IMG/VR virus record: IMGVR_UViG_3300032312_002037
Span: 17,936-81,935 of that record
Source: a virus
Taxonomy: Duplodnaviria > Caudoviricetes
Strand: one strand, 5' to 3'
Length of the DNA stretch: 64,000 nucleotides
Shown: in pieces, positions 1-57,761 of the stretch
Position numbering within the stretch: the stretch's first letter is position 1
Layout of the letters: every line of letters begins with the position of its first letter
Notes under the pieces: model-generated
What the model was told of the DNA's origin: nothing
Database searches by the model: none
Seen by the model: only the letters and a program-made list of their open reading frames with translations
Position numbers and translations under genes: made by a program

Positions 1-137
1 TCATCATCAGAATCATCTTCATCCTCACCTTTATATTCATCTTCTCTTGAATAATCATAATCGTCTTCGTAATCATATCCATCGATATCATCAAATCCCT
101 CACGTTCAAATAATTGATTAAATTTTTTAAGTTTCAT
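1..137 (-). CDS. Acidic protein with MKLKKFNQLFE leader, 3' end runs off the window (not in ORF track)
   Basis: The ATG at 137-135 overlaps the upstream TAA (TAATG). The frame reads MKLKKFNQLFEREGFDDIDGYDYEDD... and stays open to position 1. Confidence 0.75.
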   Translation of the reverse strand, partial: MKLKKFNQLFEREGFDDIDGYDYEDDYDYSREDEYKGEDEDDSDD

Positions 138-1510
138 TATAGTAAATCTATTTTTATGTATTCGGCGTCAAAATATACTTTCTGACTTACTTTGTGTTTG
201 TTTAATAAGAATTGTAATGTTGTTAAAGCCTCATATGTTTCATCAATATAACCTTCTTCTAAATCACATTGAATAAATGTGGTAGCTCTGTCAGACGCTA
301 TTTTAACATCAATACCAAACGGTGTTGCTTTTATATCGTTAATTAACTTACCATATTTTCTAATGATTTCTTCATCAATTCCTACTTTTCTAACTGTTGG
401 TAATGAATTCCAATCAACTTGAACACTAGCCTTAGCAAGTCTTTCAAGGAAATTAATATTTTGTCTTTCTTTACCCGTATGTTCACTATAATAACCAACA
501 GATATGTTAGTACATTCAGCAATTTGTTCTAAAAATGAAGCAGAATCTGTGTATATACCTGTAGGATCTAATGATAAATTAAGACCATTTGCGTTATATT
601 GTTTAGCTAAAGCAGTTCCAAATTCATCAGAACAACAAGTTCTGCCTAATTGAGAAGTAATAACTGAACAAACATCTCTTCTATCAAAAGAAACACATCT
701 CTTAATATTCTTAACATATTCAACTTGTTCATAAACAGAGGATAATAAACCCGAACCGATACCACCTCTTTCTTCTCCCATAAAGAAATAATAAAGACCT
801 GGTACATTATGAGCCATCATATATAACATAACAGCAACACCTGATTTATCATCTGCGCCTAATATAGTAGAACCATCAGTATAAATAATTTCATCACCTT
901 TATCATCTTTTTTAGAAAGAAGCTTAGTAATACCTTGTTTTCTATCAGCAGTATCTAAGTGAGATGTAAACATAGTTGTTGGGTTCTCACCAATAATCTT
1001 ATAATAGTTACCTACAATATCTTTATCTAATTTAGGCATAAAAGCCATTACTTCTTCTTCATGTCCATGAGGATATGTCTTAGTAACTAATGAAATAAAA
1101 GTACTTCTAACGTCTTTAGGATTATAATTAAAAGGCTCTGGTGTAATTCTATTAACAGCAATACTTTCAATTGAACCACCACCAGCTAATATATCATATT
1201 GTTCAATAAAATCTTTAATATCAGCCGTTTGAAAATAATTCCTAAAGTAGAATTTTAGAAAGTTTTCTATTTTCATAGGATGAACTTTACCATCAACAAC
1301 ACCATTAATTGTAGATGTAACATCTAAACAAGATTTTGTTTTAGATATATTAACATCACTAATTCCTAGACCATTATTATATTTAGAATTAGGTTCGTTT
1401 AACCAAAGCATTTCAAATGCGATGTAGCTATTCTCATCTTCTAAAACTTTTAATAAATCATGAAGTTCTTGAGAAAATTTAATTCTTATAGGTTCTTTAG
1501 TATCTGCCAT
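137..1510 (-). CDS. M28/M20-family zinc peptidase with N-terminal extension
   Basis: Zn-ligand motifs FTSHLDT, LGADDKSG, GEERGGIGS, SFDRR, YTDSASF and NISVGYYSEH. Confidence 0.85.
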   Translation of the reverse strand: MADTKEPIRIKFSQELHDLLKVLEDENSYIAFEMLWLNEPNSKYNNGLGISDVNISKTKSCLDVTSTINGVVDGKVHPMKIENFLKFYFRNYFQTADIKDFIEQYDILAGGGSIESIAVNRITPEPFNYNPKDVRSTFISLVTKTYPHGHEEEVMAFMPKLDKDIVGNYYKIIGENPTTMFTSHLDTADRKQGITKLLSKKDDKGDEIIYTDGSTILGADDKSGVAVMLYMMAHNVPGLYYFFMGEERGGIGSGLLSSVYEQVEYVKNIKRCVSFDRRDVCSVITSQLGRTCCSDEFGTALAKQYNANGLNLSLDPTGIYTDSASFLEQIAECTNISVGYYSEHTGKERQNINFLERLAKASVQVDWNSLPTVRKVGIDEEIIRKYGKLINDIKATPFGIDVKIASDRATTFIQCDLEEGYIDETYEALTTLQFLLNKHKVSQKVYFDAEYIKIDLL

Positions 1511-1547
1511 TTTTTATTTTATTTTATATGTTATTATATATTAAATA

Positions 1548-1937
1548 TTAAACTACAATTTGATATGAATTTGTATAATCTACTTTCACTTGACCATCAT
1601 TCATACCTGATTCTTTCTTAACAAATCTACTTTGGCAATAAACAACAGTTGCTTTATCATCTTTAGAAGCTTTACTATTCTTTTTAGCCAATTGAGCGGC
1701 TAATTTAATAACTATTTCAGTAGGTAGATTCTCTCTAACACGAATAACAACATGACTACCTGGAACACCTTTAACGTGCATCCAAATATCTTCTTTATCA
1801 GCAACATTAAAAGTTAGATGGTCATTAGATTTAGCATCTTTACCAACATAAACAACAAATCCTTCAATTTCTAATTTTTGAATATTAGGAAATTTATCTT
1901 TTTTAGATTCGTTAAATGAATTAAATTTCTTTATCAT
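1548..1937 (-). CDS. Stand-alone NFACT-R (DUF814) RNA-binding domain protein
   Basis: YVGKDAKSND, DIWMHVKGVPGSHVVIR and AAQLAKKNSKA. Start moved to the ATG at 1937 because the track start lies across a terminator and promoter. Confidence 0.8.
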   Translation of the reverse strand: MIKKFNSFNESKKDKFPNIQKLEIEGFVVYVGKDAKSNDHLTFNVADKEDIWMHVKGVPGSHVVIRVRENLPTEIVIKLAAQLAKKNSKASKDDKATVVYCQSRFVKKESGMNDGQVKVDYTNSYQIVV

Positions 1938-1970
1938 ACTGTATATATTAATTAGAAATTCTTTAAAAAG

Positions 1971-1997
1971 AAAAAAGACCCATAAAGGGTCTTTTTT
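1971..1997. terminator. Intrinsic terminator downstream of the major capsid gene
   Basis: AAAAAAGACCC-ATAAA-GGGTCTTTTTT hairpin flanked by A/T tracts. Confidence 0.8.
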
Positions 1998-2021: not shown

Positions 2022-3692
2022 TTAGTTTAATAACTGAGCAGCGTCAGTAACTACAATAGTCATGTATTGTTTTTGTGGGTACCAACCAACTTCAGTTACA
2101 GCATATCTTGAACGTAACAACATTCTTGGAGCGAATGTAGCTTCAGAGATAACTGAGATAGACTGAGCCATTAAGTAAGGTACGAAAATGATACCTGGTT
2201 GGTCAGGGTTGTTCTTACGACCTAATACGATTCTGTTATCGTTATATCTCATATATGGATCTACATAGATAGAGATGTCTCCGATTGAACCTACAGGGTA
2301 TAATTGACCTTGTCCGTTTAATTTAGATTTAACTGGGTTAATTGTGTAACCAGCGATATCTTGTAAAGCAGCAGCAAGACCTCCGTTTGTGATAAGGTAT
2401 TGAGCAGGACCAACACGACCTTCAGTAGCAATAAAGTTAGAAGCGTGAGCAATCTTAGTGATTAACTTACGTTGTACAGCGTGAGTAGTCTCACCACCTA
2501 CATTACCAGAAGTAGTAGCATAGTTAGTGTTTAAGTCAAAAATAGAAACACTTGAAGCATTTAATGGAGCAGATGTTCTGTTAAGATCACCCATTTCGAA
2601 AATCTTAGCAACAATTTGTTTAGATATTGTTTGAGATAATTCGTTTACAAGGATAGATTCCATTTTTTGAACGATATCCATACCTGTGTTAGCTTTGATA
2701 TCTTCGATTTCAGTTCTTCTAAGAGCTGAAGATACTTCGATAGTACCAACTGCAACAGTTTTAGAAGAAATTTTTGGTCCGATAACTCCAGAGTATGATT
2801 GATCATCAGCAAGACGACCCATTGGATATTGACCAGAAGATTGACCAGCAGCAGCAGATGTCCAGTTTGCAGAGAAACCTGGGATATGATCTTCTAAAGC
2901 AGATACTAAAGTAATAACTGGATTAGTAACGTTGATACCAGAAATTCTAACAATTGCTGAAACCATTGTACCAGTTTGAGGGAATGTATTTAATGTAGCA
3001 TCAAAAAAGTGAGGAGTAGCAAAGTTACCTGAAGTATTTGCTTGTCTGTAAGCTCTGAACATTGGTAAACCATCTATACGAGAGAATCCTAAGAATTCAA
3101 CGATATTTGTTTTAGATGTAGGTTCAGTATTAGTTTTGTAAGCACCTGATGCAGTAAGACCGTAGAATAATCTACCACCAGATAAACCACCAGTAGTTTC
3201 TCTAAGTACTGCTAAACCATTAGCACCTGCAACGTCTAATACAATTTGTGCATCAATAGCTGCAATATTATCAGCAGATAATTTGAATACTTGAGGTCTT
3301 TCGTTTGTTGTTGAATCGATATCATCATATTGAAAATCAATATAAAGTAAGTCGATTTTTGGACCTGGAGTTGGCTTTACAGCAACTAAATCCAAACCGA
3401 TTGTTTGAGCAGCAATTTTCATTGCAACTGGAAGTAAGTTCTGACCTACGTCTCCTGAACCTGCTACGTTACCGTTACCAGTTACGTTACCTGCTAATGA
3501 ACCAATAACTGGATTCAATACAGATCCCATACCTGCTACGTTTGATGCGTTTACATACGCATTTTCATTGATTGAGTGATACTCAGCCATTTCTGACATC
3601 CATTCAACTCTATCTTCAGCTACGCCCATGTTCTCTAAAACTGGAGACCATTTCTTAACTGCTTTTGATTTGTCTATTCTAATGTGTGACAT
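2022..3692 (-). CDS. gp23: Major capsid protein, T4 gp23-like
   Basis: KWSPVLE N-terminus, ESILVNELSQTISKQIV, GIIFVPYL and FAPRMLLRSRY, all gp23 hallmark segments. Confidence 0.92.
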   Translation of the reverse strand: MSHIRIDKSKAVKKWSPVLENMGVAEDRVEWMSEMAEYHSINENAYVNASNVAGMGSVLNPVIGSLAGNVTGNGNVAGSGDVGQNLLPVAMKIAAQTIGLDLVAVKPTPGPKIDLLYIDFQYDDIDSTTNERPQVFKLSADNIAAIDAQIVLDVAGANGLAVLRETTGGLSGGRLFYGLTASGAYKTNTEPTSKTNIVEFLGFSRIDGLPMFRAYRQANTSGNFATPHFFDATLNTFPQTGTMVSAIVRISGINVTNPVITLVSALEDHIPGFSANWTSAAAGQSSGQYPMGRLADDQSYSGVIGPKISSKTVAVGTIEVSSALRRTEIEDIKANTGMDIVQKMESILVNELSQTISKQIVAKIFEMGDLNRTSAPLNASSVSIFDLNTNYATTSGNVGGETTHAVQRKLITKIAHASNFIATEGRVGPAQYLITNGGLAAALQDIAGYTINPVKSKLNGQGQLYPVGSIGDISIYVDPYMRYNDNRIVLGRKNNPDQPGIIFVPYLMAQSISVISEATFAPRMLLRSRYAVTEVGWYPQKQYMTIVVTDAAQLLN

Positions 3693-3773: not shown

Positions 3774-5891
3774 TTAAATGTTTTTGAATCTTTCCATAAT
3801 TGCAGTAACGTCATTATCAGAAAGTTTATCTTCTTGTATTAAACTTTCATGAGCTACTAACTTTTTAGTTACAGACCCGTTTGTTTTAAGCTTTCTAGTT
3901 AACCAGAAATGCTCAACTTGTGATTCAGTCATTAAAACTTCAGCAGGATAAAGTCTAGCTTGTGATAAGATAGATTTTTTAGCTGATTCGTTCATTTGAC
4001 TCCAGATAGCCTTAGTGTTTTCAGGCATTAATCTGATAACTCTTTCTTCAAGAGATTCATTCTTTGATGATAGCGCTTCTGCGATTAGGCTTAACACATC
4101 TTTAGATGTGAAGTAATTTCTTTCGCTTATGTGAAATTTAACAGCCTCTTGGTCTTCGTCAGACAATGCGTAGTAACTATCTACTTGTGACTTGTTTAAG
4201 AATTTTAGGAAATTCAAGTCAGTTGATTCAGAAACTTTACGTTTTTTAGCTTCTTCTATTAATTTATCGATAGACTCAGATAATTCAGAATCACTGTTAC
4301 CAGTTACTTCATAATCATGAGCTTCTTCTTCTTTTTCTTCTTCATTTGAAGTGTTACCTTCTTCTTTATTATATGAGTTTTCCATGTTTCCTGAAGGAAT
4401 ACCATTGTACTCTTCTTCTTTTTCTTCTTCGTTGTTTGGACCACACTCTTCTTCTTTTTCTTCCATGTTTTCAAACCCAGCTGATTGTAATGAAGGAAAA
4501 GCTTCCTCATTTTCATTCATTGATTCATTTAATTTACCAGAATTTAATTTTTCAACTATCATTCCTTGGTAATTAATTGATTTATCAAGATTCTCAGCAA
4601 TATATTCAGAGTAAGCAATATTATCATCTAAATGTTCAGCGATGTATTCAGAGTAAGCAATGTTACCTTCAACGTGTTCAGCTAAATATTCAGAGTAAGC
4701 AATTGAGTTATCAACGTGCTCAGCAATGTATTCAGAGTAAGCAATGTTTTTATCCAAGTTTTCAGCGATGTATTCTGAATAAGCAATATTCTTATCAAGA
4801 TTTTCAGCTAAGTACTCAGAGTACTCAATGTTCTTGTCTAAGTTTTCTGCTAAATATTCAGAGTAAGAAATATTCTTATCTAAGTTTTCAGCGATATAAT
4901 CAGAATAAGAAATATTCTTATCTAAGTTTTCAGCTAAGTACTCAGAGTACTCAATATTTTTGTCTAAGTTTTCAGCTAAATATTCAGAGTAGTTAACAGC
5001 TTTTTCTAAATTTTCAGCTAAGTAGTCATTGTGCTTAATAAGTTTGTCAGTAGTTTCCTTTAAAGACTTGTTTTCATTAACCATAATTTGAACTTTTTCA
5101 GCCAAATAATCTAAATACTTAACAACTTGAGCATTAGTTGAATTTAACTCTTCATAGTACTCTAAAAGTTGCTCCATTTTCTTTGGAGACAAATTACCTT
5201 TAGTAAGAGCACCTTTAACTTCTTTCTGTGTAGAAGCTAATTCTTTAACTAAATACTGTGAATATTCAGTTAACTGTTGCTTTGTAACAAATTCATTTTT
5301 GTTCATATCAAATAGTTGATTTATTTTGGACTCATCGGACATTTCATATATCCTAAAGTTAGAGTTTTCATTATATCCTAATGATTCGTTGATATTCTTA
5401 ACCGACATTTTAGCAGAAGCAAAACCCGGATCAGCAACGATATCATATGTAAATAATTTTTTCAATGAAACAGTACCATCTGATTCAGTGATACCAGCCG
5501 CTCTTGAAGAAACAAAAACAGGACATCCGTCATCAACTAATGCCTTTGCTTCTTTACCCCAATAAGTGTTAAGTAATCTAATTTCACCACTAACAAGATT
5601 TGACTCTTTTACATAGTTAGCTTTTGTGATGATGTGAGACGCTCTTGATAAAGATGTATCAAAAACATCTGGATGGTCAAACTCACCATAAACAACACCT
5701 AAGCTGTTCATTCTTTCATTCAATTCGTCCAAAGCTGGAAGAAATTTATCAGCAGTGTAAATTCTCTCATTACGGTTTTTAACACCAAATTCTGTGAAAG
5801 TACCACCTAAAATATAATCCTTCTTCTGTGAACCATTATTCTCTCTAATAAGAGAGTTTTGTGAATTTTCTATAATTAATACTGGTTTCAT
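3774..5891 (-). CDS. gp21: Prohead protease (gp21-like) fused to a scaffold/core domain (gp22-like)
   Basis: N-terminal KNRNERIY, VYGEFDHPD, VSSRAAG and TYDIVADPG. C-terminal coiled coil with YLDY, a 14-aa repeat array and an acidic linker. Confidence 0.88.
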   Translation of the reverse strand: MKPVLIIENSQNSLIRENNGSQKKDYILGGTFTEFGVKNRNERIYTADKFLPALDELNERMNSLGVVYGEFDHPDVFDTSLSRASHIITKANYVKESNLVSGEIRLLNTYWGKEAKALVDDGCPVFVSSRAAGITESDGTVSLKKLFTYDIVADPGFASAKMSVKNINESLGYNENSNFRIYEMSDESKINQLFDMNKNEFVTKQQLTEYSQYLVKELASTQKEVKGALTKGNLSPKKMEQLLEYYEELNSTNAQVVKYLDYLAEKVQIMVNENKSLKETTDKLIKHNDYLAENLEKAVNYSEYLAENLDKNIEYSEYLAENLDKNISYSDYIAENLDKNISYSEYLAENLDKNIEYSEYLAENLDKNIAYSEYIAENLDKNIAYSEYIAEHVDNSIAYSEYLAEHVEGNIAYSEYIAEHLDDNIAYSEYIAENLDKSINYQGMIVEKLNSGKLNESMNENEEAFPSLQSAGFENMEEKEEECGPNNEEEKEEEYNGIPSGNMENSYNKEEGNTSNEEEKEEEAHDYEVTGNSDSELSESIDKLIEEAKKRKVSESTDLNFLKFLNKSQVDSYYALSDEDQEAVKFHISERNYFTSKDVLSLIAEALSSKNESLEERVIRLMPENTKAIWSQMNESAKKSILSQARLYPAEVLMTESQVEHFWLTRKLKTNGSVTKKLVAHESLIQEDKLSDNDVTAIMERFKNI
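4572..5033 (-). repeat. 11 tandem 42-bp coding repeats (14 aa, consensus YSEY[LI]AENLDKNI[AES])
   Basis: Counted directly in the translation and DNA. Confidence 0.95.
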
Positions 5892-10655: not shown

Positions 10656-11129
10656 TTATACATAGAACGTTCTCAGGACAGGTTTTAAGTCTTCTGAACT
10701 TAATCCATTCTCTGATAAGAATGATTGTAAATCACCATTTGATTCACATAACTTAACTATCATTTTTTGAAAATTCAAAACAGATCTTCTATCTAAAAAT
10801 TTATTACCTTCCAACCAAGTTATATCTCCTGTAGGAGAAACAGATGAAGTTATTTTATGTGTATTGTTACCTGATTGAAATACAGAATTCATAATCCAAC
10901 CACTACCTGACCTAAATATATCCAAGCTTGTGAATTTAGCATCAGGAAATGGTCTAACATTACCAACCAATATACCAAAAGTCATACTATCAATTGCCTT
11001 TCTAGACATATCAACTGCGTGATTTCTAATATCTTTAGCTCTATCAGCTTGTCCGTAAGCGGCTAGCTTATCAGCAGCACTCATATATGTAGAGTAGTCA
11101 AGTTCTTCAAATTTTCTTAAATGTTTCAT
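10656..11129 (-). CDS. Hypothetical protein with MKHLRKFEE leader
   Basis: Clean ORF with an AATATATA box upstream. Confidence 0.7.
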   Translation of the reverse strand: MKHLRKFEELDYSTYMSAADKLAAYGQADRAKDIRNHAVDMSRKAIDSMTFGILVGNVRPFPDAKFTSLDIFRSGSGWIMNSVFQSGNNTHKITSSVSPTGDITWLEGNKFLDRRSVLNFQKMIVKLCESNGDLQSFLSENGLSSEDLKPVLRTFYV

Positions 11130-14277: not shown

Positions 14278-14420
14278 ATTTTAAAGATGTTTTGAATTTT
14301 TTCCTTCCTTCTTTTCTGTCGAGAAGGAAATATAGTTATAGGTATAGAACTCACACCAAATGCAGGCTCCATTACTATATCAAATGTTTTTAGATTAAAG
14401 TGAATGTAATCCTTGTCCAT
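14259..14420 (-). CDS. Possible 53-aa ORF overlapping the 3' end of the sigma factor gene (not in track)
   Basis: Manual translation MDKDYIHFNLKTFDIVMEPAFGVSSIPITIFPSRQKRRKEKIQNIFKIKKPLN. It runs into the terminator. Confidence 0.3.
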   Translation of the reverse strand: MDKDYIHFNLKTFDIVMEPAFGVSSIPITIFPSRQKRRKEKIQNIFKIKKPLN

Positions 14421-17207: not shown

Positions 17208-17272
17208 AGTTGTATATATTAAATATAAACTTTCTCTTCATGAATTTATATACCTATTACTAATTGAATATT

Positions 17273-18235: not shown

Positions 18236-18267
18236 CAAAAGAGCCATAATATATTAATATATATGTT

Positions 18268-18882: not shown

Positions 18883-19281
18883 ATGAGGTATTTAAAAACA
18901 TTTGAGTCTTATATTGATAATGAACTAATATCTAACATTGAGTTTTATAAAGTTCCTGCCGGTGATAAAACTATTTTCAAGCCATCATTCGGTGCTGAGA
19001 GAGGTGAAACCAATTTTTATCAATTAAGATTGGATGGAAAACCTGTAGTAGAAATAGAAGTTAATCCAAATTCAAACTATGGTAAACCCGAAATAATGTC
19101 AGCATTCCCTGATATTAAAGGTAGAGGTTTAGGTGAATATCTAGCTAAGAAGATTTTAGATATTTATTTAGAAGATGAAGTCTTTGTAAGATGTACAAAA
19201 GATAGTAAGAAATTCTGGCAAAGATGTGGTGCTACAGTTGTTGATCCAAAAGACCCTTACTTATTACACTTTATTAAATAA
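18883..19281 (+). CDS. GNAT-like acetyltransferase with MRYLKTFES leader
   Basis: KGRGLGEYL (acetyl-CoA binding motif A) and SKKFWQRCG. Confidence 0.6.
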   Translation: MRYLKTFESYIDNELISNIEFYKVPAGDKTIFKPSFGAERGETNFYQLRLDGKPVVEIEVNPNSNYGKPEIMSAFPDIKGRGLGEYLAKKILDIYLEDEVFVRCTKDSKKFWQRCGATVVDPKDPYLLHFIK

Positions 19282-19319: not shown

Positions 19320-20018
19320 ATGAAAACATGTAGTAAATGTAAAGAAATTAAAAATCTTTCAGAATTTTCAAAAAGATCTGACTCTAAAGATGGTTATAGA
19401 TCACAGTGTAGAAAATGTAGAAACACTCAAGAAGCTAAAGATAGAGTGAATAGATACTACAAAAACAATCGTGATGTATTATTAGATAAAAGCAAAGAAA
19501 GAAAATTAAAAAAATCTGATCCAAATTCAAAAATCAGAACAATTAGAAAGATGTTTGAGTCTTGTGATGAAAATCAGAGTGTTTGTACAAAATGTATGAA
19601 TATAAAAAACAAGAAAAATTTCATAAAGGATAAAAGTAGGAAAAACGGTTTATCGGCTCAATGTAATGATTGTAAAAATAAATACTACAAAAATAAGAAA
19701 AAAGATGATATTATATTCAAATTATCAACAACCATAAGAAGTATGATATCATCTTACATAAAATCAAATGGTATTAAAAAGTCAAAAAAATCTGAAGAAA
19801 TAATTGGTTGTAAATTTACAGATTTAAAAATTCATTTAGAATTAAAATTTAGAGATGGCATGAATTGGGAAAACTATGGATTATGGCACATAGACCATAT
19901 AATACCTATAAGCTATGCTAAATCTGAAGAGGAAATATACAAACTAAATCATTATTCAAACTTTCAACCATTATGGGCAAAAGATAATTTATCCAAAGGA
20001 AATAGATTTATTGGATAG
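19320..20018 (+). CDS. HNH-like endonuclease with two Zn-finger repeats (free-standing homing endonuclease candidate)
   Basis: KTCSKC...SQCRKC occurs twice. C-terminal MNWENYG-WHIDHIIP...NHYSNFQPLWAKDNLSK. Confidence 0.75.
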   Translation: MKTCSKCKEIKNLSEFSKRSDSKDGYRSQCRKCRNTQEAKDRVNRYYKNNRDVLLDKSKERKLKKSDPNSKIRTIRKMFESCDENQSVCTKCMNIKNKKNFIKDKSRKNGLSAQCNDCKNKYYKNKKKDDIIFKLSTTIRSMISSYIKSNGIKKSKKSEEIIGCKFTDLKIHLELKFRDGMNWENYGLWHIDHIIPISYAKSEEEIYKLNHYSNFQPLWAKDNLSKGNRFIG

Positions 20019-20622
20019 GACAACTTGTTGAAGTGTATATAAATTTCCAATCTCTTTTTATTTTAACACCTAAAGATAAGGCGGCAGTATAAATATCCTC
20101 TAAACATTCACCATCAGCACCACCTACTATAGTAACCGCCTCATTTCTTAAACTTAAAAGTAAATTATATAACTTTTTACTAAGATGGTGCCATTTATGA
20201 TTATTACCAACATAAACAATATATGTTCCTTCTTTAGTTGGAAATATATCACCTTTCTTTAATAAACTATTATCTTCTTTATCAGAAATTTCGTTATAAA
20301 CTTCTTTATCTAGTATCTTCTTATAAAAGTCAGCATCTACTTTATAGTTATATCTTTTTTCAATAAGTTCTTTTTGATTAGGAAAGTGATAAAGATCTTT
20401 ATGAATAGGAATTACTGGAGTTTCATCATATAAATAATCCTTATCTACATTCTTACCATCTATATGATTATCCCACACTTGGTAAACACTTTGAAAATTA
20501 TTACAATACTTCTTTAATTCATTAAGATACATTTCTGAAAAGAACTTTCTAAATGATTTCTGAACATCAACTATAATTAATGTTCCATTACTATGACTCT
20601 CAAATGTTTTAAGGAATTTCAT
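20008..20622 (-). CDS. Isochorismatase/cysteine-hydrolase-fold protein with MKFLKTFES leader
   Basis: LIIVDVQKSF and VGGADGECL. Start reset to the ATG at 20622. Confidence 0.6.
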   Translation of the reverse strand: MKFLKTFESHSNGTLIIVDVQKSFRKFFSEMYLNELKKYCNNFQSVYQVWDNHIDGKNVDKDYLYDETPVIPIHKDLYHFPNQKELIEKRYNYKVDADFYKKILDKEVYNEISDKEDNSLLKKGDIFPTKEGTYIVYVGNNHKWHHLSKKLYNLLLSLRNEAVTIVGGADGECLEDIYTAALSLGVKIKRDWKFIYTSTSCPIQ

Positions 20623-20691: not shown

Positions 20692-21279
20692 TTAAAGAGG
20701 TAATTCTTCTTCACCTTCTTTATTTTCTTCTTCACCTTGTGTTTCTTGCTCTTCTTCACCTTGTGCTGGAGCTTGAGCTTCTCCTTGAGCAGGTGCTTGA
20801 GCTTGTCCTTGTGCTGGTTCTTCAAATTCGCCTTGTGCTGGAGCTTCTTGAGCTTGAGCAGGTGCTTCTTCAGTTTGAGCTGGTTGAGCCTGAGCTTGAG
20901 GAGCTTCTTGTGTTTGTGCTTGAGGATGTGCTTGAGGTTGAGCCTCTACTTGAACTTGAGGTTGAGTCTGAGGCTGTGTTTGAGTTTGTGATTGACCACC
21001 ACCCATTAAAGCTCCACCAGGAATTTTCTCAACATCTAAGTTATCCATGTTAATAAACTTTACAATTTCTTCAGCAATATCGACATCACCAAAGAACGTG
21101 CGTAGGTTTTTACCTGTAGTGTCTTTTACTTTTTTCACATAAGCATTGATTAAAGATTGAGGAATATCAATCATTGTCTTCACTTTGTAAATATCGTTTA
21201 CTTGAAGAACCGATTCTTTAATGATTTCTTCTCTGTTCTTTTTAATACGATAGTTTTCATATGTTCTAATATGCTTCAT
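20692..21279 (-). CDS. Protein with MKHIRTYEN leader and long Gln/Ala/Pro/Glu low-complexity tail
   Basis: Translation; late box upstream. Confidence 0.7.
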   Translation of the reverse strand: MKHIRTYENYRIKKNREEIIKESVLQVNDIYKVKTMIDIPQSLINAYVKKVKDTTGKNLRTFFGDVDIAEEIVKFINMDNLDVEKIPGGALMGGGQSQTQTQPQTQPQVQVEAQPQAHPQAQTQEAPQAQAQPAQTEEAPAQAQEAPAQGEFEEPAQGQAQAPAQGEAQAPAQGEEEQETQGEEENKEGEEELPL

Positions 21280-29571: not shown

Positions 29572-32283
29572 ATGAAGTATCTTAGTAATAGAGATGAATT
29601 CCTTAAAAGAAGTATAATCAAAATAGATGAATACAGAACAACAGAAGATGACTCTTCAATAAATGAAGAGGCTGACTCAGGTCCATTTGCAAATGATATA
29701 CCTTGGAATGACTCATTACTTGGTAGATTAATCAATTCTACTATTAGAAAAGCTAAAGTAGGTGCAAACTTGGTTAGAATTAAACAAGTTGCTAAAAGAT
29801 TAAATGGTGCTTTTGAAGACTTATTAGCAAGATCTGCTGAAGGAAAACTTACAAAAGAAGAACTAGCTCAAAAGAATAAGATAACTATTTACAAATTTTT
29901 AGAAGCTTTACAAAAGTCTGTTGAATCTGGTGAAAAAGTGTATCTTATTAAGAATCTAACGGACTTAGCTATCAGAGACTTTAAACAATTTATTGAGGTC
30001 ACACCAGCTGATGAACTTGCTGTTGATAAAACTGATTTAGAAAAATTGGTTAAACAATTGGAAGATTTTAGAAAATTCTTAGATGATTTCAATGATGATG
30101 AAGGTGTTGACTATGAAGAGGAAGAAGAGATAAAAAGTGAGGTAGATGATAGTCCAGGTGAAGATGATGAACCATCTAAAGAAGAGGAAGATGCTGAAAA
30201 GGTTCGTGAACTATTTTATACAACGACAATTACACTATTAAAATCAATAATGTCTTTATCTGGAATAATAAATGATAAAAAAATTACAATTAAGGATAAT
30301 AATACACCACCCCCACCAGCAGTACCAGCAAAAGTTGAAGCAGGTGAAAAAACTGAAGTAAACAAAGTAAAGGATAAAGCTGTAGTAACAACTGAAAGAT
30401 TTTTTTACGAGAATGAGTCACTTCCAATATTTGAAACTGAATTAAATTCAACAACAGATATAAAAGCTATAAACGCTTGGACCAAAGTTGAAAAGGCATA
30501 TAAAACAACATCAGGACTTGTTAAAATGATGCCAAGAATACAAGAACTTGTTAAAAAATCTGAAGAAGGTGAAAAAGTTGAAAAAGGTTGGATAATCTCA
30601 ATAGGTGAACAAGTTATTAAGAATGAAATAACTATTGGTAAAAATTTAATTCCGCTTGACAAATTAATCAAAGAGGAAGTAGAACCAGTACCTTCATCAT
30701 ATAGTGATATACCAAAAGCCATATCACTATATGGTAATGTTATTCTAGCATTTAGAGATGATATGACTATTGCTGCTAAATTAGCAGAAGCCAATCAATC
30801 TATTAAAGACTTTATAACATCTTATGATAAGTTGAAAGAACTTCTACCTAAATTAAAAGCTAAAAAGGTTGAAAAAACCGTTAAACCAGAAGGTTCGAAA
30901 ATTAAATCAGAAGATGATAGTAAACTTAAAAAAGAGTCTAGACTATTTAGATACTATGACTTTATAAATGAAGCCGAAGAAGGTCAATCAGTTGAAGATG
31001 TTCAAAGAGAAGAAACAGTAACAACAGATAAAGGAGAAGAAGTTTCAGATCCTGTTAAGAAAAATGCTGCTCAAGAAATAAAAGATTATTGGGAAAAAAA
31101 CATAAATATTAAAGGTTATGTAATGACAAGAACTGAAGTAGAAAGAACTCAAATAGCTCTTGAAAAAGCAAGTAAAAATAATATTGTTATTCAAGGCTTA
31201 GATCCTATAATTGAGATTGTTAAAGTATTTAACAGAGCTTATAAGTTACATACTACTCAAGTTATTCCAACTGGAAGAAGTGGTGGTAAAGTATCTAATA
31301 AAACATTTAGAGAATACACATGTTTTGGTAATGGCTCTCCAAATAATGCAGGTGCTGAAGGTGGACCATATAGAAATAATGCTATTTTTGATCAATGGGA
31401 AAATGCTGTTCAAGAAATTAAAAAGCAAACTAGATTTCAAAAAGTATTTAGACAAGAAACTACTCTTAAAACTGAGGAAGGCAACATTATTAAAGATGCT
31501 GGTAGAAATCTTTTAAAATTCATGAATGATATGCTTGATGGTGATACTCTTTATAAAACAAGAGATAGTAAAGGAAAACAAGCTGAATTTATTGAAAAAT
31601 ACTTTGGCGCAGCAGATGCTGAGAAACTACCTCTTTACCTAAGTGAAAAAGATAAAGAAGAAGTACCTAATACTGCAAATAGTATGCCTAAGGCTAAAAC
31701 TCTTTCTTTCAAAAAAGAATCTTTAAAATTTGAAAACTTTAGTGAGCTATCACAAACATTCTTTTCTATACAAAGTAAAGGAGAAAAATTCTTTTTCTAC
31801 ATACAAGAAGTAGATAGTGAGTACGCTTATGTTACTTATTGTAGAAGTTGGTATTTCTTCAAAAGTTATATTTCTAAATCAGGCATCTCATTAACCGGTA
31901 GCGTACCTGTTACTGACGCCGAGAAAACTGAGAATAAACAATACATTATTAAGGCAACTCGTATTAAATTAGCAGAACTTATTGGTAATGATGGTCAAAT
32001 TAAGCTAGAAGGTGATTATAAAGTTAAATATCTAACAAAATATAGGGAAGATAAAAATAAATCAAGTGCAACTCCTTCTTTATCAGGGGACGATAAAGAT
32101 GATAATTTTATTATTGGTTCTGAGAAATCAACTTTATGTGAGGTTGGTAAAGATGAAAATGGAAAAGACTTTACTAAGAGATTTAAATTGTCAAATAGAA
32201 ATATAGGCGAAGTTATAAGAACTGTTGGTGGTTTTCCTACTGTAAGAGTAGATGATATCAACAAAACATATTTTAAAAAATAA
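29572..32283 (+). CDS. Large 903-aa late protein with MKYLSNRDEF leader (putative internal head protein)
   Basis: Late box upstream; acidic and Pro-rich linkers; internal LFRYYDFINE motif. Confidence 0.65.
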   Translation: MKYLSNRDEFLKRSIIKIDEYRTTEDDSSINEEADSGPFANDIPWNDSLLGRLINSTIRKAKVGANLVRIKQVAKRLNGAFEDLLARSAEGKLTKEELAQKNKITIYKFLEALQKSVESGEKVYLIKNLTDLAIRDFKQFIEVTPADELAVDKTDLEKLVKQLEDFRKFLDDFNDDEGVDYEEEEEIKSEVDDSPGEDDEPSKEEEDAEKVRELFYTTTITLLKSIMSLSGIINDKKITIKDNNTPPPPAVPAKVEAGEKTEVNKVKDKAVVTTERFFYENESLPIFETELNSTTDIKAINAWTKVEKAYKTTSGLVKMMPRIQELVKKSEEGEKVEKGWIISIGEQVIKNEITIGKNLIPLDKLIKEEVEPVPSSYSDIPKAISLYGNVILAFRDDMTIAAKLAEANQSIKDFITSYDKLKELLPKLKAKKVEKTVKPEGSKIKSEDDSKLKKESRLFRYYDFINEAEEGQSVEDVQREETVTTDKGEEVSDPVKKNAAQEIKDYWEKNINIKGYVMTRTEVERTQIALEKASKNNIVIQGLDPIIEIVKVFNRAYKLHTTQVIPTGRSGGKVSNKTFREYTCFGNGSPNNAGAEGGPYRNNAIFDQWENAVQEIKKQTRFQKVFRQETTLKTEEGNIIKDAGRNLLKFMNDMLDGDTLYKTRDSKGKQAEFIEKYFGAADAEKLPLYLSEKDKEEVPNTANSMPKAKTLSFKKESLKFENFSELSQTFFSIQSKGEKFFFYIQEVDSEYAYVTYCRSWYFFKSYISKSGISLTGSVPVTDAEKTENKQYIIKATRIKLAELIGNDGQIKLEGDYKVKYLTKYREDKNKSSATPSLSGDDKDDNFIIGSEKSTLCEVGKDENGKDFTKRFKLSNRNIGEVIRTVGGFPTVRVDDINKTYFKK

Positions 32284-32843
32284 TGAAAAATCTTAAAACA
32301 TATAAACTTTTTGTAGAAGAGTCTGAATTTGATTTGAATGTAACAGATGAGCCCGATATTAAAATGGCTAAAGATGAGTTATCAGTAACTCAAAAACAAC
32401 TATCTGATTATAAAACAAAGAAGAATTTAATAGATACGGCTTTTCTTAAAATAAAAGTAGATGCTGACTTACAAACAAAAGTAGATGAGATTGTCGGCAA
32501 AGCCGATCTAAAAACACCTAAAAATCCATTTTTAGTTAGCTATTTACATGTGGCTAAATTGAAAAGAAGACTAGACAAACTTCAAACCGATATTGCTAAT
32601 GACAAAGTTAAAAAAGATGATTTTACTGAAGAATTAAAACTATCTACGGATGATATAACAAAAAAGTCTGTTGTTACAAAAATAACTGATATCACTAACA
32701 GAATATCAACAAATACGACAAATATAGCATCATTAGTTAAAGATATAGCTGATGCGCAAAAGTCATTAGACGATAAAATGAAAAGTATAGAAAAAAATAT
32801 GATGGATAATATTAAAAAGTTGTCAAATCAAACATCAAAATAG
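32283..32843 (+). CDS. Coiled-coil protein with MKNLKTYKLFVEE leader
   Basis: TAATG coupling to the upstream gene; heptad pattern. Confidence 0.65.
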   Translation: MKNLKTYKLFVEESEFDLNVTDEPDIKMAKDELSVTQKQLSDYKTKKNLIDTAFLKIKVDADLQTKVDEIVGKADLKTPKNPFLVSYLHVAKLKRRLDKLQTDIANDKVKKDDFTEELKLSTDDITKKSVVTKITDITNRISTNTTNIASLVKDIADAQKSLDDKMKSIEKNMMDNIKKLSNQTSK

Positions 32844-38166: not shown

Positions 38167-38177
38167 TAATATTATTC

Positions 38178-40697: not shown

Positions 40698-41504
40698 TTA
40701 GTCAATTTTGAATTTTGTTTTATTCAACATATCTATGATATAATCTACATATTGTTCAGCTGTAAACTTTTTACCATATTGAGATTTTAATTTCTGAAAC
40801 TGGTCATTTACTTTATTTGCAACCATTAAACCAAAACTATTTTTGTCACTACCTTTTGCAGTATCTATTCCAAAATCATAAGCTCTTTTTTTAGTTTGGA
40901 TACCTGTTTTCTTCAACCAATTATTATATACTTCTAATACTTTACTTTTATCCTCATCTTTATACCAATAAAACTTTAAATGGTCATTATCTTCTATAAA
41001 ATGTTTAGCATCATATCCACACTTGAAAGAAATTGCGGAGTTTTTTAATTCACCTTCTGTACAAGCCTTATAAAAATCACTTATAAGAGTTGCAAGTCCA
41101 TTGAACCATTTCTTCAAATTGTCTTCACTTTTCTCAAACGTTATATAAAGGTTTTTTGTTATCTCTTTATCACCTTTTACTTCTTTTTGTTTAAGACTTG
41201 AATTATAATTTACACCAAACCACTCATTTTGTACATCCTGTCCAATTTTCATTACACCACTTTTGTACTTAAATAAGTATTCGTCCAGTATTTTTTTCCA
41301 ATTAGGAGATAACTTTTGAATAAAATTATTAAGTTCTGTATGTTCTTCTTTTCCTCGAATTATATTTTGATATATCCAAGAAGAAAAATCCATATCATTG
41401 CCATCTAAACTACTATTTATATAATCAATTAGTTTTTTTCTTCTCTCATCACTGATTGTAAAGAATGTGTTTTCAAAAATTTTATATGATTTTAAATGTT
41501 TCAT
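40698..41504 (-). CDS. Protein with MKHLKSYKIFEN leader; possible HopA1-like fold
   Basis: NLYITF...SFKC...DHLKFY...SFGLMVA motif order. Confidence 0.45.
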   Translation of the reverse strand: MKHLKSYKIFENTFFTISDERRKKLIDYINSSLDGNDMDFSSWIYQNIIRGKEEHTELNNFIQKLSPNWKKILDEYLFKYKSGVMKIGQDVQNEWFGVNYNSSLKQKEVKGDKEITKNLYITFEKSEDNLKKWFNGLATLISDFYKACTEGELKNSAISFKCGYDAKHFIEDNDHLKFYWYKDEDKSKVLEVYNNWLKKTGIQTKKRAYDFGIDTAKGSDKNSFGLMVANKVNDQFQKLKSQYGKKFTAEQYVDYIIDMLNKTKFKID

Positions 41505-41552
41505 TATATTATGTTATTTTTATATGTCTTTAGATATCTCATATTCTATATA

Positions 41553-42314
41553 TTACCAGAATCCCGGATAAGTTTTCCCACCCCAAAGGTGTCCATATTT
41601 ATTAATTCTACAAGCCCAATATCCAGCTTTAGTTTTATCTTTCTTCATATCACAGTTATGTCTAGCAGCAAATGACTTTCTTGCTTTAGGATTACTAACT
41701 TTAGCTGTTAACCCACCATGAACATCACCAAATGCTATCTTTTTAACCTTACCTGTTTTAGGATTCTTAACATAAACTTGATACTTTTTAGAACCACCAC
41801 GCATTGGATAGTTTAATTTAACTTCTTTATTATGGTATTTGGCTTCAAATACATAAGCATCTTGACCATCATCATATTTACACTTACAAGGTTGACCATC
41901 AAACTCACCTTCGAATGTGGTACAAGAAGCCTCTTTGTTTTTAGTCCAAGCCAATGGTTTGATATTTGTAACTTTTTTACCCATAACCTCATAATTAAAA
42001 TCAGGAGTTACATCATGTATAGAAAATGCGGGTTGATTTGTCTCAACAACAAATTCCATTGGTAAATCTAAAGGAACCAATTCACCATTGTAGATTCCAA
42101 ACTTACCAATATCAGTTGATTCGTATAGTTCTTTATCAACATCACATAAATTAACTCTACCTAAGTCAAATAGTTCTCTAGCTTCTTTGATTACTTCATA
42201 GAAAGCCTCTGAACCCGGTCTGAATATATTTTCAGTAATAGGTTTATTATTCTCTAAGTGATATTTAAGAGATTCTGAAACATTTACAGATTCTGTGAAT
42301 TTAATAATTTTCAT
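41553..42314 (-). CDS. Protein with MKIIKFTES leader and C-terminal DUF6321-like basic Cys/His domain
   Basis: EAKYHNKEVKLN, VYVKNPKTGKVKKIAFG and SFAARHNC...AGYWAC. Confidence 0.6.
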   Translation of the reverse strand: MKIIKFTESVNVSESLKYHLENNKPITENIFRPGSEAFYEVIKEARELFDLGRVNLCDVDKELYESTDIGKFGIYNGELVPLDLPMEFVVETNQPAFSIHDVTPDFNYEVMGKKVTNIKPLAWTKNKEASCTTFEGEFDGQPCKCKYDDGQDAYVFEAKYHNKEVKLNYPMRGGSKKYQVYVKNPKTGKVKKIAFGDVHGGLTAKVSNPKARKSFAARHNCDMKKDKTKAGYWACRINKYGHLWGGKTYPGFW

Positions 42315-42327: not shown

Positions 42328-42750
42328 TTATTGTCCAAGAGAGTTGATAAAGTCAGCCATATTCATAACTTTAACATCAGTCTCTGGATTTGTTTCTTCA
42401 ACTTCTTCACCACAAGTGCAGTCTTGACAACCGCAACCGCAACCTTGTTCTTGTTCAACTTGATTTCTCATATGATTTGCTGTATGAGATGCTTCAGGAC
42501 CACCTAAAAGTGTTTGTTCTTTATCTTCTGGTCTAACTTCAACCTCAACCTCGATTGTAAAGTTTTCAAATTTTTTAACTTTTATTAGTTTATCAAATTC
42601 TTTTTTAACCTTTTCTTGGTCTTCCTGTACATCAGTTGTAAATGATGGTCTCTCATCTTTATCTACTAAAACTTCAGCATTAAAAAGAACTTCTTGGTCT
42701 TCAACCTTTTCATCCTTTTTTGTTTCATTGAATTTTTTAATGTGTTTCAT
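42328..42750 (-). CDS. Acidic protein with MKHIKKFNE leader and Cys cluster
   Basis: GCGCGCQDCTCG near the C-terminus. Confidence 0.65.
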   Translation of the reverse strand: MKHIKKFNETKKDEKVEDQEVLFNAEVLVDKDERPSFTTDVQEDQEKVKKEFDKLIKVKKFENFTIEVEVEVRPEDKEQTLLGGPEASHTANHMRNQVEQEQGCGCGCQDCTCGEEVEETNPETDVKVMNMADFINSLGQ

Positions 42751-53478: not shown

Positions 53479-53934
53479 ATGAAGAAAATTGAAAGGTTTA
53501 TAAAATATTATTTATTAAACGAATCTGTTAAAGATATGGAACTAAATAAGATAAGAGTTAAAGTTTCTAAAAAGAAAACTTTAACTAAAAGAGAACATGA
53601 TTTCCTAGAGTTGTACCAAGCTACAAAGAAGGAAGATATGAAAGATTATTTATATCTTTCTAAAAATACTACTTTTTCTAAAATTTTAGAACTTATTGAA
53701 AGTAAAGTTAAAGTTATCTGTAACTTACACGATAGAAATGGTAAATTTGGTATGGAAATAGTTAAAATCGAAAACAATTTTGAGGAAGAAACTTGTAAAA
53801 TAACTATGATTCACGATGAACATCATAAATTACATGATAGGTTTCTTTATAATTTAATATATAATACAAAGAAAAGAGAATATTCACTAGAAGAACAAGA
53901 TGAATATTTTGAAAAAATAGAAGCAAAAAAATGA
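53479..53934 (+). CDS. Hypothetical protein with leader ending LLNES
   Basis: Late box at 53448-53455. Confidence 0.65.
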   Translation: MKKIERFIKYYLLNESVKDMELNKIRVKVSKKKTLTKREHDFLELYQATKKEDMKDYLYLSKNTTFSKILELIESKVKVICNLHDRNGKFGMEIVKIENNFEEETCKITMIHDEHHKLHDRFLYNLIYNTKKREYSLEEQDEYFEKIEAKK

Positions 53935-54200
53935 TTAAATCATTCAAACAGTTTAACGAAGAAATATCTGGTACTGAACTAGTAGGTCCTGTAGGACCAG
54001 CATATGGCGAAACAGGACTACAGAATAAAACTGTTACCTTTCATGATACAAATGTGATATTATCAGAATTAGATAATAGATTCTATACAATAGATGAATA
54101 TAATAACATTTATAGTGATTATTTAAAAGTGGGCGGAAAGCCATTAGACGGATTTAACAGAGAAAACTTAGATACTGTTATTTCTTTTATGAACGATTAA
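53931..54200 (+). CDS. Small protein with MIKSFKQFNEE leader
   Basis: ATGA overlap with the upstream gene. Confidence 0.65.
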   Translation: MIKSFKQFNEEISGTELVGPVGPAYGETGLQNKTVTFHDTNVILSELDNRFYTIDEYNNIYSDYLKVGGKPLDGFNRENLDTVISFMND

Positions 54201-55615: not shown

Positions 55616-55652
55616 TTTACTATAATATTTTTATTAACATATATATTAAATG

Positions 55653-56318
55653 TTATGATTCACTTTTAAGAGTAATTGTAACAACAGCTGATTTACCACC
55701 AAATCTATCTTCAGTAATTTCTTTTTCTACATTAAATCTAGAAAAATCTATGCCTCTAAAAAGACCATTCCATTTTCTATCTGTGTAATCAGAGGATCCA
55801 AAACCACCATTACATCTGACAGTGATTTTTAAATTTTCTTTATCTAAATTCTTAGTCATATTATTTGTAAAATCACTCTTTGAAGCATTTGTTCTAACAG
55901 ACATTTCATTGTAAAGTTTTTGAATTGTAAATAAATCACCTTCAACTTTAGATTTTTGTATAAAAGTAACAATTATGTAATGTCTCCAATTGGTACCAAT
56001 AGAAACTTTAGCACTTTCTAAACGATTTTTAAGAGCTATTAACTCATCTAAGAAATCCCAAAATTTCTCATCAATAATTTGGTCAGTATATCCACCAGAT
56101 GGCCCTAGTTGAAAAGAGTTTCTAAAAACTATATTCATTGATTTATAACCAGAAAACTCACCATCGGTAATAACTCTTGGTGGTGAAAATGTATATTGAA
56201 CACCTAAATCTGTAATAGGAATAAGTAACTCATCCAACTCTTCTTTAGTTAAATCGGTTACATCTTCGGTAGATTCATTTAGATAATTAACAAAATTTTC
56301 AAAGTATTTTAATCTCAT
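55653..56318 (-). CDS. Hypothetical protein with MRLKYFENF...YLNES leader
   Basis: Translation; TAATG coupling. Confidence 0.65.
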   Translation of the reverse strand: MRLKYFENFVNYLNESTEDVTDLTKEELDELLIPITDLGVQYTFSPPRVITDGEFSGYKSMNIVFRNSFQLGPSGGYTDQIIDEKFWDFLDELIALKNRLESAKVSIGTNWRHYIIVTFIQKSKVEGDLFTIQKLYNEMSVRTNASKSDFTNNMTKNLDKENLKITVRCNGGFGSSDYTDRKWNGLFRGIDFSRFNVEKEITEDRFGGKSAVVTITLKSES

Positions 56319-57013
56319 TATTTATTCTTTAATTTTCTATCTAAAATTTTAGCAATATGGTCACCAATAAAGAAGTGAACGTTTTTAATTGTATCTGTTT
56401 CAAAGGTTTCAATTTCATCCATGAATTTAAATTGAAACTTATATGTATCTAACTCTTCTTCGTCTATTTTGTCTATTTTATGAATAGACATATCCATATG
56501 ATAATTATTATTAATGTTAATCTTAAAATCAAATGTTGTTTTATCACAAGGAGTTGTTTTGAACTTAGGCTCATATTCAACATCAAATATTGAATAATCA
56601 GTAATATTAGATCTTCTCATATAGTAGTTTAAGAACATCGAAGGTGCTTCAATAAAGTCGGAAAGAATTTGCAAATCCTCGCCAAAGTTTTTAGACTCAA
56701 TTATATCTTCTATTTTTTTCTTCATGTCAACCACATTTGTAAATTCAATCTTATGATAAACACAGTTGATATCATATAAGTAAATAAAAGAGTTGTCAAC
56801 TATATGTCTTTTATCTAAATCCGTCTTAAAAATGAATTTAGTGTGTATAATAGATGTATCTTGTGTTGATAAACCATGTATTGAAATAACTAATTTATAG
56901 AAGTCTTCATCTCTTGACATCTCATATACAGATTCAACTGTGTTTACTACACCTTCTTCTTCAACAAAGATATCTTTGAATACTTGTTCTATTTCTGATA
57001 TTTTAATTTCCAT
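56318..57013 (-). CDS. Hypothetical protein
   Basis: 231-aa ORF in an operon. Confidence 0.65.
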   Translation of the reverse strand: MEIKISEIEQVFKDIFVEEEGVVNTVESVYEMSRDEDFYKLVISIHGLSTQDTSIIHTKFIFKTDLDKRHIVDNSFIYLYDINCVYHKIEFTNVVDMKKKIEDIIESKNFGEDLQILSDFIEAPSMFLNYYMRRSNITDYSIFDVEYEPKFKTTPCDKTTFDFKININNNYHMDMSIHKIDKIDEEELDTYKFQFKFMDEIETFETDTIKNVHFFIGDHIAKILDRKLKNK

Positions 57014-57014
57014 A

Positions 57015-57761
57015 TTATTTAAATTGATTATCGTATGATTTTCTTTTAAGGTCGATTATTTTACCAACATATCCATTTCTTCTAAGAAACTTAAATACTA
57101 AATTACCCATTGACAACTCACCACCTTCAGATTCTAAGCCACTTTTTCTATAGTTTTTAACCTTTTCCCAAACTTTTTGAACTTTTTCAATGAAAGTATC
57201 ATATTTATCTTCATCTACTTGTTCTTCTAAATCATCAACCATCATCATAACTGATTTACCTTTCTCAGCAATCATATCTTCATCTGGTTCAAAATCAAAC
57301 TCCTCAGGTTTAACATTCCATTTGTTATTCAATAAAGAAAAAACACCTGTTGATTTATGAGGTTCCGACACATCTTGAATATAAACTTCAACCTCATAGC
57401 CCTTTATCTTAATATCATGTTCTTTATTCCAAACAGACTTAGCACTATCAACATACTTTTTAACTAATTCAACAGCATCATTTACATTAGTAAAATCTAT
57501 TAGAATATGTAAGTCATAATCTGAGTATTTTTCAGACCAATTGTAATTAGCCAAAGAACCAGTTAAAACAATATCTTCAACGTCGGCTTCTAAATCAGTA
57601 GAAGCATAAAAGTCTTGAGCGATTTTTAATAAATCTTCTCTAACCTCATCATCAATCTTAAAATCATCCCATATTTTAGGATTAAGCTCGTCTTTAACTC
57701 GAAATGACTTAGACGCTTCTAGGTCTTGTTGATTGAATTCAAAATATTTTACAAGTTTCAT
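57015..57761 (-). CDS. Pol-beta-superfamily nucleotidyltransferase with MKLVKYFEF leader
   Basis: DIVLTGSLANYNW...YSDYDLHIL (GS + DxD) and VEVYIQD. Start set to the ATG at 57761. Confidence 0.7.
   Translation of the reverse strand: MKLVKYFEFNQQDLEASKSFRVKDELNPKIWDDFKIDDEVREDLLKIAQDFYASTDLEADVEDIVLTGSLANYNWSEKYSDYDLHILIDFTNVNDAVELVKKYVDSAKSVWNKEHDIKIKGYEVEVYIQDVSEPHKSTGVFSLLNNKWNVKPEEFDFEPDEDMIAEKGKSVMMMVDDLEEQVDEDKYDTFIEKVQKVWEKVKNYRKSGLESEGGELSMGNLVFKFLRRNGYVGKIIDLKRKSYDNQFK

Follow-up and report, generated by a model that had tools for sequence, protein, structure and literature searches.

A short N-terminal leader on unrelated proteins of a Mahaphage-type huge phage as a candidate capsid-targeting signal

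The window analyzed here is a stretch of 64,000 nucleotides (bases 17,936-81,935) of an 81,935-bp virus contig with approximately 30% G+C. Within this window, otherwise unrelated genes were found to begin with the same short N-terminal leader peptide, in the following termed the tag. The 82-kb contig is part of the genome of a Mahaphage-type huge phage, for which LR745206 (634,780 bp) is the closest complete relative. Identity to LR745206 and LR756502 (642,428 bp) is 66-80% for the tail sheath, the capsid protein and the prohead protease. More distant kin are LR756504, LR756501 (735 kb), LR756500 (462 kb), the Lak phages and Tenacibaculum phage PTm1. The relatives of the window phage make up the largest genomes of the Mahaphage clade, and the predicted hosts are Bacteroidetes (PMC7162821). 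The paper describing this clade does not mention the tag, and a search for huge phages and capsid targeting together found no paper in the literature library used.

A first-pass annotation, made from the window, had listed about 15 leaders and proposed that they direct proteins into the phage head. All 15 coordinates were true ATG starts encoding the quoted peptides. We scored them with a gapped hidden Markov model (HMM) trained on the leaders of LR745206, for which the best of 450 internal-Met controls reached 6.9 bits. Seven of the 15 (starts at 11129, 18883, 20622, 21279, 32283, 41504, and 42750) were canonical, scored 18-23.5 bits, and fit the pattern MK[HYF][LI][KR]x[FY]..E. Adjoining the portal gene, MKHLRKFEE begins a protein of 157 amino acids (aa) (10656..11129, - strand; 21.0 bits, and 28.7 with a position-specific scoring matrix, PSSM) that had no Pfam or PHROG match. 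MRYLKTFES begins a 132-aa protein (18883..19281, +; 20.8 bits), MKFLKTFES a 204-aa protein with its true start at 20622 (20008..20622, -; 18.2 bits), MKHIRTYEN a 195-aa protein whose LR745206 orthologue carries the identical leader (20692..21279, -; 20.7 bits), and MKHIKKFNET a 140-aa protein (42328..42750, -; 19.7 bits). Two genes have a long-form leader. The first, just 5' of the tail sheath gene, encodes 186 aa beginning with MKNLKTYKLFVEE (32283..32843, +; 19.2 bits), and its orthologue begins MKYLKKYKIFLEA. The second encodes 268 aa beginning with MKHLKSYKIFEN (40698..41504, -; 23.5 bits) and had no Pfam or PDB match.

Four weaker variants scored 8-12 bits. These are MIKKFNSFNES on a 129-aa protein with an NFACT-R domain, encoded directly 3' of the capsid gene (1548..1937, -), MIKSFKQFNEE on an 89-aa protein (53931..54200, +; 9.0 bits), MRLKYFENFVNYLNES on a 221-aa protein whose orthologue begins MKHLTQFFDYIKES (55653..56318, -; 8.3 bits), and the weak leader MKYLSNRDEF on a 903-aa protein whose orthologue begins MKYLSKRSEYLKS (29572..32283, +; 8.1 bits). 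The LR745206 orthologues of the tagged genes of the window retain tag-like N-termini. The last four leaders were at background. MKLKKFNQLFE heads the 5' part of a 150-aa gene that leaves the window (3..137, -; 1.0 bit), MKIIKFTES a 253-aa protein (41553..42314, -; outside the top HMM hits, PSSM 1.1), and MKKIERFIKYYLLNES a 151-aa protein (53479..53934, +; 3.5 bits), and all three are ambiguous. MKLVKYFEF on a 248-aa protein matching phrog_36119 (57015..57761, -) fits the strict regular expression given below but is weak by HMM (3.1 bits). Thus, about 11 of the leaders first listed are supported by the HMM, while four are indistinguishable from background. Two further tag-like sequences were discarded as chance hits. 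MKFLRKFNSY begins a 53-aa open reading frame (ORF) at 1460-1621 (+) that is antisense to two genes and has no promoter box, and MKKLKNFEYDLK starts at an internal Met (12284, +) within a TnsA-like domain.

Of the 94 gene starts called in the 82-kb contig, 8 matched the strict regular expression M[KR].[LIV][KR].[FY], as did the true start at 20622. Among 1332 other ATGs with 12 or more open codons behind them there were only 3 matches, one being this same 20622 start and one a 12-codon remnant ORF described below. Even so counted, the conservative Fisher odds ratio was 41 (p = 4e-8). The leader is therefore commoner at gene starts than at control ATGs, which confirms the initial observation. 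The recognizable structural and replication genes of the window are without the leader, in agreement with the first-pass annotation.

That the leader occurs genome-wide had been guessed from this one window. We analyzed LR745206 in full (924 ORFs), and the guess was found to be true for this complete relative, where the tag is present on 101 ORFs (11%). An HMM score of at least 15 was reached by 98 of its 14,638 ATGs. Eighty-five of the 98 coincide with called gene starts, another 11 open ORFs of 83-291 aa, and the remaining 2 (513339 and 515075) belong to mini-ORFs similar to the 12-codon ORF of the window. The tag is N-terminal only, with 96 of the 98 high-scoring ATGs heading real ORFs, and an HMM of the tag without its Met found almost no internal copies. 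When the first 20 residues were cut off, the 101 tagged ORFs fell into 96 BLAST clusters (E below 1e-5), and the claim of one portable leader on unrelated proteins thus holds. Tagged genes often stand in tandem arrays, with 32 adjacent pairs compared to 10.9 expected.

Matches to a strict DNA pattern of the tag numbered 64 in LR745206, 71 in LR756502, 34 in LR756504, 14 in LR756500 and none in LR756501, compared to 0-3 for reversed-pattern controls. LR756501 carries degenerate forms only, such as MNKLKTYKTFEN and, at 53916-96330, the N-termini MNNLNEYKLF, MENLNDYKQFNEN, and MIKRFNNFVKES, in which a core [FY]-[KN]-x-F-x-E seems to be conserved. No such tag was found in a 50-kb region of Tenacibaculum phage PTm1 or a 42-kb region of Prevotella phage Lak-A1.

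The tagged proteins are mostly without recognizable domains. A Pfam domain was present in only 4 of 100 tagged LR745206 proteins and these represent three families (NUDIX twice, an M15 peptidase, and a DUF), whereas 100 length-matched untagged ORFs of the same genome hit 60 Pfam families. PHROGs gave only seven families for the tagged proteins, mostly NUDIX. Since 96% of the tagged proteins of the relative have no Pfam domain, the proposal that the cargo consists of many enzymes is unsupported. With respect to the window, the NFACT-R assignment of the protein encoded at 1548..1937 was correct (Pfam NFACT-R_1, E 3.4e-16, residues 23-119). The GNAT assignment fell short, as the protein encoded at 18883..19281 has only a weak similarity to Acetyltransf_1 (Pfam E 0.005), under the cut-off. 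The proteins called cysteine hydrolase, nucleotidyltransferase and HopA1-like matched nothing in Pfam or, by sequence, in the PDB. Four tagged proteins were compared with PDB sequences, all without a hit, and Foldseek with the AlphaFold2 (AF2) model of the 204-aa cysteine hydrolase candidate returned nothing at E <= 0.001, which leaves this function unsupported. The NFACT-R protein is a stand-alone version of this RNA-binding domain of ribosome quality control type, and it is found in more than 600 metagenomic relatives.

The tag is 9-12 residues long and occurs in three registers, MK[YH][LI]Kx[FY]E.., MK[YH][LI]KxFNE[S], and MK[YH][LI]KxYK[IL]FE[S]. In 88 of the 101 LR745206 tags, the first Glu is residue 8, 9, or 11. 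A phi-x-E site (phi is a hydrophobic residue) was found within residues 5-14 in 77% of the tags compared to 24% of controls; Asn occupies P2 in 32 of these 78 sites, and Ser occupies P1' in 33 of them. Replacements between tags are chemically conservative (L/I/V, K/R, and F/Y). Synonymous codons in the tag follow genome usage, for Lys (AAA/AAG 75/25 compared to 74/26) as well as for Glu, Asn, His, Ile, and Arg, and selection therefore acts on the peptide. Preferences for codons ending in A are only mild, and the choice of Leu, Thr, Phe, and Ser codons deviates slightly from the genome.

Orthologues point in the same direction. In a set of 120 NFACT-R orthologues with 78-94% identity in the domain, MIKKFNSFNE[SG] was found to swap with MRYLKYYES or MKYLSYFEG, with Glu10 being invariant. 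The 120 orthologues of the 204-aa protein keep M[KR][FY][LI]KTFES, and M1, K5, and E8 are invariant in 46 orthologues. The tag is thus constrained as a motif and not as a sequence. In the AF2 models of both proteins, residues 1-13 have a predicted local distance difference test (pLDDT) score below 50. The domain of the NFACT-R protein, which by Pfam begins past the tag, scores above 90, while the model of the 204-aa protein is poor overall (pLDDT 60.7). In the NFACT-R protein, the tag thus lies outside the folded domain. Taken as a whole, the data support a portable, peptide-level N-terminal label on unrelated proteins, and the leader is best explained as a short flexible address peptide with a basic amphipathic core, MK[YH][LI][KR]x[FY], followed by Glu and usually a small residue.

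The window encodes T4-type head machinery, as originally annotated. A gp23-type major capsid protein is encoded at 2022-3692 (-; Pfam Gp23 E 1.1e-28). The large terminase is T4-type (23937-26084), and the portal (8849-10549), tail sheath (32905-36780), and tail tube (38178-38798) genes are T4-like as well. A gp55-like late sigma factor is encoded at 14395-14760 (-; phrog_234 E 4.4e-6). The prohead protease is gp21-like and is fused to a scaffold in a single 705-aa protein (3774-5891, -; phrog_207 E 5.8e-31). By tblastn it matched annotated prohead core proteases of T4-like and Rak2-like phages, and its DHP and SSRAAG motifs are invariant. Its score for Pfam S77 was below cut-off (20.9 bits, cut-off 27; E 2.7e-4), and a PDB profile search with the protease-scaffold alignment gave no match.

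In the scaffold part, residues ~290-445 of the protein consist of 11 tandem 14-aa (two-heptad) repeats, NIxYSEY[IL]AE[NH]LDK (DNA 4575-5048, 78% matches). Behind them lie an acidic stretch and, at the C-terminus, a helical domain. The repeat count (11-12) is kept in the relatives of 634-735 kb, while the repeats are degenerate in the 462-kb relative. The T4 gp21 consensus is present in every repeat as (I/L)-A-E, and YSEYIAE of the repeat is closely similar to YQEFIAE, the core of the capsid-targeting sequence (CTS) of T4. This T4-like heptad is found in the scaffold repeats, not in the tag. We rejected the tag as a copy of the scaffold repeat, since the HMM of the tag without Met had no match in the protease-scaffold and just a loose aromatic-x-x-aromatic...Glu likeness was left.

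Two candidate maturation sites were identified in the head proteins. A phi-N-E-[SA] site lies right after the protease domain (residues 167-170, DNA 5382-5393) and is kept in all six relatives. The capsid propeptide ends in I-N-E-N (residues 41-44, DNA 3561-3572), which holds the last Glu before the mature domain and is conserved as [IML]-[NHY]-E-N in the six-relative alignment. The end of the tag, F-N-E-S or I-F-E-S, appears to have the same form as these two most likely maturation sites of the phage. The conserved terminal Glu of the tag, invariant in the two orthologue sets, is what a Glu-specific prohead protease would need, in line with the first proposal. Within the bodies of tagged proteins the observed/shuffled ratio of [LI]-x-E was 0.96 compared to 1.15 for untagged ones, which is suggestive but confounded by structure; phi-N-E-[SNAG] was not depleted inside tagged proteins.

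A promoter-like AATATATA box had been reported with the leader genes. In the window it precedes the capsid, protease, portal, terminase, tail tube, and other structural genes, and many others too, but not the RNase II-like, glutamine-synthetase-like, clamp-loader, gp55-like, phosphoesterase, or TnsA-like genes. Two of the genes without a box lie amid the structural genes, namely an RNase II/R-type exoribonuclease with RNB, CSD, and S1 domains (6474-8354, +) and the glutamine-synthetase-like gene (13148-14233, +). In LR745206 the box was found within 60 nucleotides (nt) upstream of 45% of tagged ORFs compared to 15% of untagged ORFs. The box is therefore real and approximately 3-fold enriched at leader genes, but it is a general box of structural/late type and not leader-specific. 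Two distances to the ATG are preferred, -12/-13 and about -27 to -37 (examples of boxes are 1938-1949, 17208-17220, 18256-18267, and 57762-57773). A box at -12/-13 precedes 26 of 101 tagged and 44 of 798 untagged genes of LR745206, approximately 70 genes altogether. At the -12 distance the start codon follows the box after only 4 nt, and a box acting as T4 late promoters do would there give mRNAs with little or no leader. The box is probably a late promoter, with the gp55-like sigma factor as its likely reader. Box and sigma factor together support co-expression of tagged genes and head genes, although this is not specific to the tag.

One -12 box stands before the 12-codon remnant ORF MRYLKTYKNNII (41504..41542, -), which starts 4 nt past the box. 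Its stop codon overlaps the ATG of the next tagged gene (TAATG), and it looks like the stump of a tagged gene that was replaced.

The best reading, which we hold at about even odds, is that the tag is a capsid-targeting and cleavage signal like the T4 CTS. Tagged proteins would then be made alongside the head genes from gp55-type late promoters. The tag would dock them on the assembling prohead core, formed by the gp21-like protease fused to the repeat scaffold, and a Glu-specific protease would cut the tag away, leaving the mature proteins in the head to enter the cell with the DNA. This sequence of late timing, docking, cleavage, packaging, and injection is inferred. The CTS of T4 is an N-terminal propeptide of 10-20 residues, MKTYQEFIAE, which brings a variety of proteins, foreign ones included, to the core and is then removed by cleavage after Glu. 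Glu is likewise the residue after which all prohead proteases of the T4 family and of giant phages cut (PMC5694885, PMC3012670, doi 10.1101/2021.01.19.427310). The T4 CTS is found on IPI, IPII, IPIII, Alt, and gp24 (Mullaney & Black 1996, as summarized in PMC5694885 and PMC3012670).

Like the T4 CTS, the tag is about 10 residues long, sits at the extreme N-terminus, and begins with MK. Both have aromatic or hydrophobic residues 3-4 apart and end with Glu before a small residue, and both are found on otherwise unrelated, fast-evolving, phage-specific proteins. The phage also shares gp23, gp21-like, and gp55-like genes with T4. The tag differs in reading MKYLKxFNES or MKYLKxYKIFES; the T4 sequence and the tag consensus MK[YH][LI]Kx[FY][NE]E have the pattern alone in common (MK, aromatic-x-x-aromatic, Glu), with no sequence similarity. 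P3 is often Phe in the tag but Leu/Ile in T4. Protease and scaffold are one polypeptide in this phage, unlike in T4. Furthermore, packaging and cleavage, which are established for the T4 CTS, are proposed for the tag.

A number of observations weigh against a T4-like capsid-targeting function. The tag is carried by more than 100 proteins per genome (11% of ORFs), which exceeds the known number of T4 CTS proteins (about 5-8) more than tenfold. The tagged proteins are mainly acidic (85% net negative compared to 64%, p = 9e-10), and the approximately 30 residues after the tag are rich in Asp and Glu, whereas the T4 internal proteins are highly basic. The strict gp21 consensus form [LI]-x-E is present in only 37% of the tags, the commonest form having Phe at P3. 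The tagged genes are dispersed over the whole LR745206 genome without enrichment near the head genes. LR756501 keeps the scaffold repeats while having no strict-pattern tags. To these we add the missing HMM match between tag and scaffold, the late-gene status of the box, which is deduced from gene content, and the fact that the clade has no cultured member.

Large-genome myoviruses offer a second comparison. phiKZ, 201phi2-1, and SPN3US have a T4-related prohead protease cutting after Glu, and many (about 50) head proteins are packaged, some of which are ejected (PMC5694885, PMC10052503). Their propeptides are 80-160 residues long without a common sequence, and just 8-19 proteins are processed at a motif A/S/G-x-E, unlike the tag, which is one short peptide shared by more than 100 proteins. 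With the tag on about a tenth of their genes, the window phage and its 635-kb relatives may package more than 100 different proteins. Encapsulin cargo-loading peptides resemble the tag in being short disordered terminal peptides that send diverse cargo inside an HK97-fold shell. They differ in being C-terminal and uncleaved, in serving one to few cargo types, and in belonging to a cellular nanocompartment and not a virion.

The evidence for an N-terminal, portable, and disordered peptide tag fits equally well with an address that is read outside the prohead, such as by the phage's own Clp-type protease system for timed turnover, by another phage-built structure or compartment, or by a chaperone. 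Such a reader is possible because the phage family has its own Clp proteins. ClpS is encoded in the window beside the terminase gene (23625-23909, +; Pfam E 2.8e-19), and a 709-aa AAA_2 Clp ATPase (ClpA-like) is encoded by relatives along with two or three paralogues of ClpP. Among the N-terminal motifs recognized by ClpX, one class is similar to N-termini of the type Met-basic-hydrophobic-hydrophobic. The acidity of the cargo and the sheer count of tagged proteins, both unlike T4 internal proteins, are also easier to place here. However, no specific link ties the tag to Clp, and ClpS recognizes N-terminal L/F/Y/W and not Met-Lys. A degron would leave the invariant Glu and the small residue after it unexplained, along with the phi-N-E sites found where the protease joins the scaffold and where the capsid propeptide ends. 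Recruitment of a chaperone is disfavored by the absence of a phage chaperonin, with neither Cpn60 nor Cpn10 found in two relatives. We hold a reader other than the prohead core to be the main rival, possible but less likely than capsid targeting. Apart from the tag, ClpS, the Clp ATPase, and ClpP amount to a complete phage-borne Clp proteolysis system in this phage family.

Explanations at the level of RNA or of recombination only are unlikely. In the former, the first ~10 codons would serve as an A/U-rich initiation region on mRNAs that are possibly leaderless, and the peptide would be functionless. The excess of -12/-13 boxes at tagged genes agrees with this, many of these genes starting 4-5 nt past the box. 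Every tag codon is A/T-rich, codon 6, which varies in amino acid, mostly ends in A, and the Leu, Thr, Phe, and Ser codons show their mild deviation. It is contradicted by the genome-average synonymous usage for Lys, Glu, Asn, His, Ile, and Arg and by replacements that keep chemistry, not bases. Moreover, three quarters of the tagged genes have no -12 box, the 44 untagged genes with such a box have unrelated N-termini, and A/T richness does not account for the order of residues or the invariant Glu. We regard an effect on RNA or translation as highly improbable. Least probable of all is a by-product of gene turnover, in which promoter and first codons form a cassette of recombination homology for swapping accessory genes with the peptide hitch-hiking, since, despite the remnant leader behind its box directly 5' of another tagged gene, the two mini-ORFs of LR745206, the tandem arrays, and the leader forms swapped among orthologues, the tags are low in DNA identity with freely varying synonymous sites, a box is missing from the 60 nt upstream of 55% of the tagged genes, and conservation of the motif and its Glu across diverged orthologues points to selection on the peptide. 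Recombination may exploit the tag but does not explain it.

A bolder proposal, which we put forward tentatively and think rather unlikely, is that the tag represents a sorting label new to phages. In these phages of 0.5-0.7 Mb, it would direct approximately one tenth of the proteome somewhere other than a T4-type core, for instance to a phage-built compartment or to the phage's own ClpS/ClpA/ClpP machine; if the destination is the head, more than 100 mostly acidic orphan proteins would be delivered ready-made at infection.

If capsid loading is true, huge phages would inject a proteome of a hundred or more orphan proteins, which would explain part of the purpose of their enormous genomes. A simple sequence rule would then flag many candidate proteins for host takeover and counter-defence, and the tag would provide a short natural packaging signal for large capsids. 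If another reader is true, the tag would belong to a new protein-sorting system in viruses of bacteria. In either case the tag aids annotation of the clade by marking true start codons, and it defines a functional class among otherwise unannotated proteins.

Two repeat features of the window were observed besides the tag. A 9/18/27-nt periodic repeat at 63087-63968 lies within a large ORF on the - strand (61596-63998, open at the window end) and probably encodes a Gly/Ser-rich collagen-like fibre region, with a local G+C content of up to 34%. Between the convergent genes 37817-38068 and 38178-38798, a perfect G+C-rich hairpin, AAAAACCCACCAATCGGTGGGTTTTT, is tandem-duplicated at 38100-38169 and is probably a bidirectional terminator.

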